This document shows, piece by piece, positions 41,760-43,544 of a stretch of DNA of 64,000 nucleotides. This DNA is from Klebsiella phage Roth37. Under the pieces are notes generated by a model. That model had not been told where the DNA came from and searched no databases. It worked only from the letters and a program-made list of their open reading frames with translations. Positions within the stretch are counted from its first letter, which is position 1. The number at the start of each line of letters is the position of its first letter. Both the position numbers and the translations under genes were made by a program. The stretch is taken from sequence record PQ657803.1; one strand, 5' to 3'.

Positions 41760-43068
41760 ACCTCGTCAATTAGTATCTTTAAGAACTCTCGTGAAAGCTC
41801 TTAAAGATACCGCCAGTAGCGAAGGACGAATCCCCTCATTAAGCGTCTCATTGGTACGCACTACTGTCAGACGTATCTTCCAGTTATAGTCAAGGTGACT
41901 AATATACCTTGCCAGATCCCGGCCAACAGATATCCGTTGGCTAATGCGGTCTAGGCGAGGGCACACTCCAAACAGGGGCACTTCTAGCCTGTGTAAGGGT
42001 GCTATAAATAGTGGTTATGCTTTCGCTCGGGGTGACTCCGGTCATGACTCCATTGTCACATGCTTACACAGGGTATACGAGCTTCCGCGGAGCTGTATAC
42101 TCAACCGTGTCCCACTTAGGTCTCGGAGCGACCGCTTGTACGAACGGTTATCCGAATACTCTTTCCCACTTAGAGTCAGGCGAGATCCCACCTCGCCAAA
42201 GTTCATACGATCATCATGCCGTATTTAAGGACTAGTTTTGGCACTTCTGGAGAGCCATCCTCCACGCGGTCTGTTAAAATCACACCTCCGAATTTTCGAT
42301 GTGAAGTTTGGCTATCTCTAGCCTTCCAGCGTATGGTCGCTTCGCACCTGCCACTCTTACGTTCAAATCGGTTTAGGTGGTGGCAACCCTCCGAAGTTCC
42401 GAGTTTGGTTGAGGCCGTCAGGTTTCCTCGTGGTTTAGCTGTTTCGTTCCCGCGAGTCTCCCAAGTCTTTCCCTGGGAGGGGAGGAGGTACTCCAGCAGC
42501 GAGTGGTTCGACAATAGAACCATCAGTTATCTAGCTCTTTCCGACCGCAGGATTCGAACCTGCACTTTCCGCATCTGGGGATAGCTCCCCGCGTGCAGAA
42601 GTCTACCAATTAACTTAGGACGGCAGTGTTGCTACATAAGTGATTTCGACACCCCACTATGGTGGCAATAACCAGCACCAGACGCTATACACATGTCTCC
42701 AATTTGCAACCTAGGCAGGTCAGCGTGGGAGCTATACGAGTTTCTCAGGCTCAGCTCCCCACCTCTCCGGCAGGCCACGCACCATGCTTCATTCTGGTAG
42801 AACAAGTTAAAGTGAGATTCCACCATTTTTCTACAAATTAGAAGAAGAGTTTAGGAGAGTGGTTTCAGACGCCACATTTTACAAGAGATCTCTAACCTAC
42901 GCCCGTCCAATACGCTCCCTGGCCGGTATCCGGACTGGATGCACGAACTTTGTCAGGTGATCACTCTTAACTCACCGATTCTATTCAACGAATCTTAATG
43001 ATCGACGAGTCTTACATTAAAACAAGTTCAGCGTAATCGGCCCGCTGTTCTCTCTAATTTATGAAACT
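41760..43068 (-). ncRNA. ~1.3 kb ORF-free, GC-richer (~53%), highly structured segment transcribed from an early promoter; contains an orphan tRNA-like T-arm/acceptor (42541-42568)
   Basis: No ORF with RBS on either strand; multiple nested GC hairpins (for example 42560-42600, 42716-42755); promoter at 43069-43097 fires into it. Confidence 0.4.
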
Positions 43069-43097
43069 ATTATATCAACTTTTTAAGCATTAGGCAA
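43069..43097 (-). promoter_or_regulatory. early promoter (TTGCCT-17-TATAAT) with no ORF for ~1.3 kb downstream
   Basis: attata-N17-aggcaa plus conserved downstream box. Confidence 0.65.
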
Positions 43098-43544
43098 CTG
43101 AGATTTTAATTTATAGAACACATGGTTGCCAATTTTACTTGTTCTTTTGAAGTCCTTGTCTTTTGTCCAGTAAGGTTTAGTATCTTTACTGTGAAAGTAC
43201 AAAGCTCCCTTCGTCGGATCTACTGGAAGATCCATATAGTAAACTAGTCTAGCTATCTCTTTAGCCTGTTTCCACTCTTCGTCTTTACGATCGAGTTTCT
43301 GTTTCTTTTTACCAACCCAGCTAAATTGCCCTGGTTGATAGACTACTTTACAATATGTGGACGGGAATTTTCCATAGTTAACACGATTTTTCGTTACTTG
43401 TGCAACTGCGGTCATTCCTTTAACTCCTTCCCCTCTAGCTTCAAAGTACGCATTTTTAGCTATGCACTCTATCTCATGCGCATCAATCTTTGCCTGCGCA
43501 TGGAAGCTGGTGAGGATGGAGATCATTAGAATGGCTGCTTTCAT
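43083..43544 (-). CDS. secreted cell-wall hydrolase, SleB/CwlJ (Hydrolase_2)-like
   Basis: 153 aa; signal peptide; AVAQVTKNRV...FPSTYCKVVYQPGQFSW motif. Confidence 0.65.
   Translation of the reverse strand: MKAAILMISILTSFHAQAKIDAHEIECIAKNAYFEARGEGVKGMTAVAQVTKNRVNYGKFPSTYCKVVYQPGQFSWVGKKKQKLDRKDEEWKQAKEIARLVYYMDLPVDPTKGALYFHSKDTKPYWTKDKDFKRTSKIGNHVFYKLKSQLPNA

Follow-up and report, generated by a model that had tools for sequence, protein, structure and literature searches.

A conserved structured RNA, probably orthologous to RNAX, at the promoter-proximal edge of the tRNA island of a Sugarland-like Klebsiella phage

GOLLD is a very large phage-encoded RNA that lies in tRNA islands, with a universally conserved 3′ part, a variable 5′ part and, sometimes, embedded tRNAs (PMC12286853). 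ROOL, a large RNA with multiple pseudoknots from phages and prophages, is often found near tRNA islands and has no known protein partner, and the conserved contacts between its loops proved to be intermolecular (PMC12286853). The existence of RNAX is documented solely by a note in the GenBank entries of four T5-like phages: the misc_RNA feature rnaX is annotated only in BF23 (tRNA-region record), Salmonella phage 5, DT57C and DT571/2, with the text ‘RNAX, stable RNA with unknown functions’, and the same spot in other records is labelled pseudo-tRNA, tRNA-Sec or tRNA-OTHER. Here we analysed a stretch of 64,000 nucleotides (nt) of Klebsiella phage Roth37 (PQ657803.1; henceforth referred to as the window), in which an earlier reading made from the letters alone (henceforth the sequence-only reading) had singled out the segment 41760-43100 as free of plausible open reading frames (ORFs) and highly structured, and had named a large structured non-coding RNA (ncRNA), an intron-like or ribozyme-like element and a decayed tRNA or intron remnant as candidates. 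The segment is 99.9% identical to Klebsiella phage Sugarland (Demerecviridae, Sugarlandvirus), and we refer to its product as the Sugarland RNA. We consider it likely, with a probability of about 0.8, that the segment is a conserved structured ncRNA gene orthologous to RNAX. Coordinates are positions in the window unless another sequence is named, the RNA is described in the minus-strand sense, and the genes around the locus all lie on the minus strand.

The proposal of a large structured ncRNA with its own early promoter is backed by homology to rnaX, by conservation in six lineages and by compensatory base changes. Blastn tied positions 42515-42883, the promoter and the 3′ end (41772-41810 and 41874-41900) to the misc_RNA rnaX; five collinear blocks, including the promoter and the last 40 nt, joined Sugarland to BF23, T5 and DT57C, and multiple alignments revealed conserved blocks shared between the segment and the rnaX features. 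A comparison with relatives by BLASTN, which the sequence-only reading had proposed, showed the block to be conserved in T5-like phages, and with sensitive blastn settings 522 phage records matched. The lineages that carry the locus are Sugarlandvirus, Epseptimavirus, Tequintavirus, Hongcheonvirus, Myunavirus and the unclassified Markadamsvirinae Eos and AAS21, and in all sampled genera the same promoter is followed by the RNA and then by tRNA-Arg(UCU). In T5 and BF23 tRNA-Arg directly adjoins the RNA, Sugarlandviruses have two small ORFs in between, and some other phages have an HNH gene there; since the feature that follows the RNA differs between phages, the segment is not the untranslated leader of one gene, as had also been suggested. 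We found no match among 5,426 complete E. coli genomes and, by blastn, no homologue in Vibrio, Proteus or Providencia T5-like phages. When IMG/VR was scanned for the neighbouring hydrolase and two DNA motifs, just close relatives or chance matches came back, and a scan of metagenome contigs with the tRNA-like motif yielded 88 loci, 9 of which were real, all of Tequintavirus or Sugarlandvirus types.

The locus was gathered from 53 distinct sequences, in which the RNA, taken from its predicted start to the point where the terminal hairpin ends, ranges from 626 to 1293 nt across lineages: 626-724 nt in T5, DT57C and Pantoea phage AAS21, about 790-805 nt in the BF23 type, 826-1137 nt in Epseptimaviruses, 942-988 nt in the Pectobacterium phages My1 and DU_PP_V, 1118 nt in Eos and 1240-1293 nt in Sugarlandviruses. 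The Sugarland RNA has in common with RNAX of BF23, phage 5, DT57C and DT571/2 the orthologous locus, the early promoter, the position upstream of tRNA-Arg(UCU) and a core of leader motif, tRNA-like module, GGAGUCAUGACC hairpin, three-way junction and terminal hairpin. It differs in size (~1290 nt compared to the annotated 636 nt in DT57C and 784 nt in BF23), in its full 5′ domain (T5 and DT57C lack it, and BF23 has a shorter form), in a second closed domain and a 14-nt hairpin inserted in the tRNA-like anticodon arm, in a centre that is longer by ~130 nt, in an insertion of ~110 nt close to the 3′ domain, and in the two ORFs that part it from the tRNA-Arg-like element; moreover, the Sugarland record shows three hypothetical proteins in its place.

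The early sigma-70 promoter that had been predicted to fire leftward from 43069-43097 (-) is real. Ten of 12 positions match the consensus (-35 TTGCCT at 43097-43092, a 17-nt spacer and a TG-extended -10, TATAAT, at 43074-43069), and the promoter and a T5-type start region, ATAAATTAGAGAG, are conserved in all relatives, among which the BF23 record labels the homologous site ‘promoter P16-17’ and annotates its RNA from there to the first base of tRNA-Arg. We place the predicted start at the A at 43062 within ATAAATTAGAGAG, the exact +1 being presumed by analogy with T5 early promoters. The whole RNAX-family ncRNA, which is supported by rnaX homology, lack of a conserved ORF and covariation, spans 41773..43062 (-), ~1290 nt. 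Starting at this strong promoter, it heads a leftward early transcription unit that continues into tRNA-Arg(UCU) and the tRNA island. Its place is at the promoter-proximal border of the tRNA cluster and not inside it, where it had been put.

The view that the segment holds no plausible ORF was borne out, as no ORF longer than 122 amino acids (aa) lies within 41760-43070 and none of the 8 ORFs of the segment that we searched matches Pfam or PHROGs. CDS 118, 119 and 120 of the Sugarland GenBank record (41766-41981, 42203-42523 and 42632-42805, all minus strand), which are given as ‘hypothetical proteins’ with annotated ribosome-binding sites, are almost certainly spurious: their frames are interrupted by stop codons in relatives that are 82-92% identical. 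The GC content is 49.5% across 41772-43062 and 50-53% in 300-nt windows, compared to 43-45% in the flanking genes, 45.3% in the whole window and a mean of 53.4% in the 25 tRNA genes; the enrichment noted earlier is therefore present, but smaller than the ~53% against ~42% that had been claimed. That the locus might be a graveyard of decayed tRNA genes or introns, or might encode the small proteins annotated in GenBank, would fit its tRNA-like GC content, the one degenerate tRNA inside it, the plasticity of T5-like tRNA regions (insertions, duplications and HNH genes) and the three to six small coding sequences annotated in Sugarland and other records. Such an origin is hardly credible, and we regard it as already largely refuted. 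A single tRNA-like match appears even at E<=10, conservation by compensatory change extends across subfamilies and contradicts a decayed remnant, and the annotated coding sequences (three to six different small ORFs per record, on either strand) vary in strand and position, have no family matches and contain stops in close relatives. Neither of the two things that the sequence-only reading had set against its own proposal, a conserved protein-coding frame and a degraded remnant without conserved structure, was found.

Across the alignments, invariant blocks are separated by hairpins whose sequence changes while pairing is kept, and entire domains are swapped for short loops with the closing helices retained, as in T5. 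The fold is a chain of separately closed domains, namely an optional 5′ domain, an optional domain 2 and a core present in all members, the latter made up of a tRNA-like module on a 13-base-pair (bp) helix, a mosaic centre, the GGAGUCAUGACC hairpin, a three-way junction and a terminal A+U-rich hairpin. Against shuffled sequences, the minimum free energy (MFE) gave z = -3.0 and -3.1 for the 3′ two-thirds and -0.02 for the 5′ third. Covariation was compared with slid controls and 500 shuffles; the test of the tRNA-like domain used a plain MAFFT alignment, and those of the 3′ domain (covariance model R1) and of the invariant-loop hairpin with its neighbour (R2) used alignments fitted to the tested structure. 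In domain 3, which holds the tRNA-like module, the 30 pairs were 91.0% paired (33-41% when slid), 14 of them had changed on both sides (0-4 when slid) and none of the 500 shuffles reached the score. With R1, the 37 pairs of the 3′ domain including the terminal hairpin were 95.0% paired and 20 had changed on both sides (3-6 when slid), and with R2, 11 of 13 pairs had changed on both sides (1-5 when slid), with 92.3% pairing and 0 of 500 shuffles reaching the score. A test of arm duplex energies in cis against trans did not discriminate (-7.4 compared to -6.5 kcal/mol), and R2 took its place.

Whether a known RNA family accounts for this fold was addressed by a covariance-model search, as the sequence-only reading had advised, with all 4227 Rfam families (E<=10 in a 1.4-kb segment and five homologous loci; E<=1 in 5 kb). 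The sole family matched was tRNA; GOLLD, ROOL, group I and II introns, RNase P, transfer-messenger RNA (tmRNA), Y RNA/YrlA and small ribozymes remained unmatched. Size, multi-domain fold, a candidate pseudoknot and invariant single-stranded motifs would be compatible with a catalytic or intron-like RNA (a self-splicing intron, an RNase P-like RNA or a self-cleaving ribozyme), and HNH endonuclease genes occur in or beside the locus in several phages. This candidate is nevertheless very remote, given that no group I or II intron, RNase P, tmRNA or small-ribozyme model matched at E<=10, that no exons of a split gene flank the segment, and that the HNH genes, which most members lack, flank domains or stand in for them and do not occupy a conserved intron loop. 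RNAX resembles GOLLD and ROOL in its context and layout (phage origin, tRNA island, a conserved 3′ part with a variable 5′ part, embedded tRNA) and is not homologous to them. Like GOLLD (RF01998), RNAX is large, phage-encoded, situated beside a tRNA island and conserved at its 3′ but variable at its 5′ end; unlike GOLLD, it is found in virulent enterobacterial T5-like phages and embeds a non-decoding tRNA mimic on a helix, where GOLLD has a functional tRNA in a disordered linker. To ROOL (RF03087), whose domain architecture is unlike that of RNAX, the likeness lies in an invariant self-complementary loop on a covarying stem.

Domain 3 (42505..42658, -) begins with the conserved AGUGGGGUGUCGAA (42645-42658) and ends with a hairpin GGUUC/GAACC (42505-42521). 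Between them, helix P3, of 13 bp with a conserved G.G mismatch (42631-42644 with 42522-42535), encloses the tRNA-like module (42540..42624, -), which scores 35.1 bits with Rfam tRNA (RF00005; gathering threshold 29). When the segment was searched alone, the match spanned 42539-42624 (-) and model positions 1-71, so that what had been taken for an orphan T-arm without a 5′ half is a complete cloverleaf, matched end to end. The module has acceptor, D and T arms and a canonical T-loop, GGUUCGAAUCC; its anticodon loop is replaced by a 19-nt insertion that forms the hairpin GGGGAGCUAUCCCC, and the earlier noted hairpin CTGCAC...GTGCAG/GGGGATAGCTCCCC at 42560-42598 is its extended anticodon arm. In place of a 7-nt anticodon loop with a conserved anticodon, the anticodon arm has this insertion here and, depending on lineage, a 6-nt GUAACU loop, a GAGA tetraloop or a 3-nt loop, or there is no tRNA-like body. 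The acceptor is not fully paired (of 38 sequences, 20 have G1.A72 unpaired and 28 have U5.U68 unpaired), CCA is not encoded, AAAGA follows the acceptor stem, and both flanks are drawn into P3. ARAGORN made no call at 42540-42624, and homologues of the module score 29-40 bits with Rfam tRNA in BF23, AAS21, DU_PP_V and UTK0009. Three Epseptimaviruses have a plain hairpin instead of the tRNA-like body and keep the remainder. The mismatched acceptor, the missing CCA, the lineage-variable anticodon arm and this replacement together mean that the module is a tRNA mimic that does not decode and is not strictly essential to the family. A metagenome contig of Tequintavirus type (L099, 8485-8665) carries a Sugarland-type module with a compensatory difference in the inserted hairpin (GGAGAU/AUCUCC as opposed to GGGGA/UCCCC), which suggests that modules of the RNA may be exchanged between genera by recombination.

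Other RNAs are known to embed tRNA mimics, among them tmRNA. In YrlA a tRNA-like module without a functional anticodon caps a long helix that its flanking sequences form, and the MALAT1/mascRNA case shows that a tRNA mimic in a long transcript can act as an RNase P processing signal. The RNAX module, with its acceptor, D and T arms, likewise sits on a helix made of its flanks; RNAX differs from YrlA in being 5-10 times larger, in matching no Y RNA, YrlA or tmRNA model of Rfam and in that its module is dispensable in three Epseptimaviruses. By analogy with MALAT1, the mimic is a putative RNase P site within a long transcript. It has an unpaired 6-nt leader and a 5-nt trailer and could be a further RNase P site, in which case P3 would hold both halves together after the cut.

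The same module raises the question of an anti-defence decoy, in which the scaffolded mimic would titrate host tRNA-targeting nucleases or tRNA-binding factors and so complement the phage’s own set of tRNAs. The tRNA elbow (the GG of the D-loop and the T-loop GGUUCGAAUCC) is strongly conserved, the anticodon arm is variable and cannot decode, and the tRNAs of T5-like phages are reported, in a passage of the BF23 paper that cites work on retron Eco7 and PARIS, to counter tRNA-cleaving immunity (PMC10644984), which speaks for such a role. However, anticodon nucleases recognise the anticodon loop, precisely the part that is not conserved here, the three Epseptimaviruses with a plain hairpin keep the rest of the RNA, and the other conserved domains would be left unexplained; we therefore regard a decoy as decidedly improbable. 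A YqeY-like tRNA-binding partner, annotated upstream in some relatives, was also considered and dropped, as T5 ORF076 gave no Pfam match and there is no homologue in the window.

The two optional domains lie upstream of domain 3. Domain 1, the 5′ domain (42835..43060, -), is closed by helix P1 (43049-43060 with 42835-42848) and contains the hairpins CAGCG/CGCUG (43043-43047 with 43029-43033), CCGG (42923-42933) and GUGG/CCAC (42859-42875). A candidate pseudoknot between the loop of the first of these hairpins, CCGAUU (43035-43040), and AAUCGG (42975-42980) is suggested by conservation and by changes confined to AAS21 and the Pectobacterium phages. Pairing in domain 1 extends to 91% of cells (31-44% when slid) and P1 is 97.9% paired; the helices are nearly invariant, with 6 compensatory pairs compared to 2-5 in controls. 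T5-type phages have a 4-nt loop on P1 in place of the whole domain, and BF23 has a shortened form. Domain 2 (42659..42826, -), closed by AUGGUGG/CCACCAU (42820-42826 with 42659-42665), occurs in Sugarlandviruses, Eos and many Epseptimaviruses but not in T5 or BF23; 18 of its 34 pairs are compensatory in an RNAalifold analysis of 13 sequences. It includes the hairpin GGGAGCU...AGCUCCC with a conserved loop, CCUGAGAAA. Both hairpins that the sequence-only reading had quoted thus exist and this one covaries in relatives, but its true position, 42727-42759, is ~5-10 nt from that given. An extra module of ~78 nt, with an AGUGGG repeat at its start and CCAGCCAC at its end, lies between domains 2 and 3 in VAC51, Kpn13-P2, Eos and TrudiGerster (L031, L032, L142 and L144), and the Pectobacterium phages have a related piece that ends ...ACCAGCCAC.

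The central region, domain 4 (42060..42504, -), is a mosaic in which lineage-specific hairpins surround conserved blocks such as CACAUCGAAAAUUCGGAGGUGUG (42281-42303) and two AGUGGGA motifs, and its consensus has just 16 pairs, 6 of them compensatory. At its 3′ border lies the hairpin GUGAC...GUCAC (42032..42059, -), which presents GGAGUCAUGACC (42040-42051). This loop, with the self-complementary UCAUGA inside it, has a single occurrence in the window and is invariant in 44 sequences save one base in My1, while its stem differs by genus (GUGAC/GUCAC, UAGGCU/AGCCUA, ACUAAAC/GUUUAGU or CCUAGAC/GUCUAGG). It is followed on the 3′ side by a GAAA-tetraloop hairpin (42019-42026) and a conserved AACCAC (42011-42016). 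A second conserved element with a self-complementary centre is found at 42064-42090 (-), ~40 nt upstream of the invariant loop; it reads UCCGCGGA in Sugarland, UUCGCGAU in most members, GUGCGCAC in S126, CCGCGG in KFSSM and CGCGCG in T5. The CGCG core is at least 90% conserved and the flanks vary yet stay symmetric. Pairing of the invariant loop with AGUCACCUUGACU was considered and ruled out, as in AAS21 the hairpin in question is AACU/AGUU and the loop is kept. A long-range pair between GUGG (42654-42657) and CCAC (42011-42014) is tentative, the supporting change (ACGG/CCGU) being found only in two Pectobacterium phages. An all-against-all scan of one whole-RNA MAFFT alignment gave 29 antiparallel helices with at least two compensatory pairs, compared to 18 in a parallel-strand control, and was thus uninformative; covariation was assessed on domain-wise alignments instead.

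GOLLD and ROOL form RNA-only homo-oligomeric cages, and the sole hint of the like in RNAX is the invariant self-complementary UCAUGA loop. It is quite doubtful that RNAX, which T5 also carries, represents a third, unrelated class of ‘ornate’ phage tRNA-island RNA beside GOLLD and ROOL, one that self-assembles into an RNA-only oligomer via its invariant self-complementary loop (G-G-[AGUCAUGA]-C-C) and perhaps also via the second, CGCG-centred loop ~40 nt upstream. If it were true, the tRNA-like module would be displayed outside or enclosed, and the optional 5′ domains of the Sugarland and Epseptimavirus RNAs would be lineage-specific decorations of a ~600-nt core.

Downstream of AACCAC, a ~110-nt hairpin insertion (41901..42010, -) is specific to Sugarlandviruses and absent from the Epseptimavirus, Tequintavirus, Pectobacterium and Pantoea phage homologues. 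The 3′ domain (41810..41900, -) then consists of a hairpin AGUCA-CCU-UGACU (41888-41900), the conserved AACUGGAAGAUA (41874-41885) and a three-way junction, whose outer helix (41861-41870 with 41810-41819) encloses two hairpins split by CUUAAU. T5 (L021, 5678-5994) and a metagenomic Tequintavirus (L086) carry an 83-nt insertion here that duplicates the AGUCACCUUGACU / AAACUGGAA block of the domain. The RNA ends in a 15-bp A+U-rich hairpin, GUAUCUUUAAGAGCU-UUCACGA-GAGUUCUUAAAGAUAC (41773..41810, -), which is helix 5 of the model, with 97.5% pairing and 4 compensatory pairs, and which directly adjoins tRNA-Arg in T5 and BF23. It does not have the features of an intrinsic terminator: its stem is A+U-rich and it is followed not by a U tract but by UAAUUGACGAGG. 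A terminator scan did not report it, gave as its single weak match an adjacent 5-bp stem inside the three-way junction, and found no terminator after the RNA. Because it lacks a U tract, the hairpin is a probable processing site rather than a terminator, and, with no terminator after the RNA, the 3′ end would probably be made by processing, either by an RNase III-type cut at this hairpin or by RNase P at the next tRNA. A near-copy of the hairpin, GGUAUUUGAAGAGGUUCUCACGAGAGCUUCUUCAAAUAC, including the loop UCACGAGA, lies at 33990-34030 (-) directly upstream of tRNA-Tyr (33900-33986), and the copied element has the look of a pre-tRNA processing signal that recurs among these phages.

These observations also suit a purely cis-acting processing scaffold, in which the RNA would be the structured 5′ spacer of the early tRNA operon with no function of its own, protecting the transcript, positioning RNase P, RNase III and RNase E cuts and setting the yield of tRNA-Arg(UCU), the downstream tRNAs and the ORFs. 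The RNA always lies between the promoter and tRNA-Arg(UCU), no terminator follows it, a hairpin like its terminal one stands immediately before another tRNA, the tRNA-like module within it could potentially be cut by RNase P, and large parts of it are dispensable in some phages. Yet a spacer needs no conserved multi-domain structure of more than 600 nt, nor invariant loop motifs that are kept across subfamilies while their stems change; the RNA is conserved even where ORFs or an HNH gene intervene before tRNA-Arg (Sugarlandviruses, S126 and My1), and the depositors call RNAX a stable RNA species, not a discarded leader. On balance a scaffold alone seems unlikely. Tentatively, and in analogy to GOLLD and ROOL, we instead consider it possible that RNAX is a trans-acting folded particle tied to the phage’s tRNA and translation programme, in which case the released RNA would accumulate and act as such a particle in early infection. 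The weight not given to this or to the other readings was left to something else.

Several points weigh against the explanation favoured here. The status as a ‘stable RNA’ rests on depositor notes in the GenBank records of other phages, and a literature search turned up no publication that deals with RNAX or with any large structured RNA from a T5-like phage. The near-zero MFE z-score and nearly invariant helices of domain 1 leave its fold weakly supported, the mosaic centre yields little consensus structure, and the alignments behind two of the covariation tests (3′ domain and invariant loop), being fitted to the tested structure, favour it. The phages that supplied the sequences are all close relatives, and shared ancestry is not accounted for by the shuffles. 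T5-type phages do without 650 nt of the Sugarland RNA and three Epseptimaviruses without the tRNA-like body, and much of the structure emphasised by the sequence-only reading is therefore dispensable. The trans-acting function, finally, is our inference and lies outside what the computations show.

With regard to the neighbours in the window, a SleB-like cell-wall hydrolase (43083-43544, -) lies upstream of the RNA, and downstream there follow a 108-aa ORF (41429-41755, -; matching phrog_18988), a 58-aa ORF, an aberrant tRNA-Arg(UCU)-like element (41157-41235, -; 33.3 bits with Rfam tRNA), an HNH endonuclease gene (40636-41145, -) and the 25 tRNA genes, the closest tRNA found by ARAGORN being that at 40140-40214. 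The aberrant element has a D arm of only 4 nt, a 20-nt variable insertion and an encoded CCA, and was missed by ARAGORN and by the Sugarland record; a normal tRNA-Arg(UCU) occupies the syntenic position in VAC51, pKMKP103, Eos, UTK0009 and BF23. HNH homing-endonuclease genes are inserted at differing points of the locus among phages. In S126 and My1 (L036 and L141) such a gene lies between RNAX and tRNA-Arg, and in four Epseptimaviruses (L037, L038, L052 and L146) it stands in place of domains 1-2, its ATG coinciding with the predicted +1 of the RNAX promoter, and its mRNA is apparently leaderless.

Overall, RNAX emerges as a modular RNA of 0.6-1.3 kb, supported by covariation and conserved across at least two Demerecviridae subfamilies plus Sugarlandvirus. 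Its family-wide structure, modularity and distribution appear to be undescribed, and the Sugarland version, mis-annotated as proteins, has roughly double the annotated size. T5 is a founding model phage and T5-like phages are widely used in biocontrol and therapy; about 1% of their genomes is a promoter-driven RNA that has been ignored or mislabelled as hypothetical proteins or as “tRNA-Sec/OTHER”. Adding RNAX to Rfam as a new family, for which it is a candidate, would put hundreds of annotations right. Naturally occurring deletions and insertions delimit a minimal core, and mutation could be aimed at the tRNA mimic and its conserved mismatches, at the palindromic loop that does not vary and at the pre-tRNA hairpin that recurs. 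E. coli with T5 or BF23 thus offers a genetically tractable system for the role of the large RNAs that lie beside phage tRNA islands.

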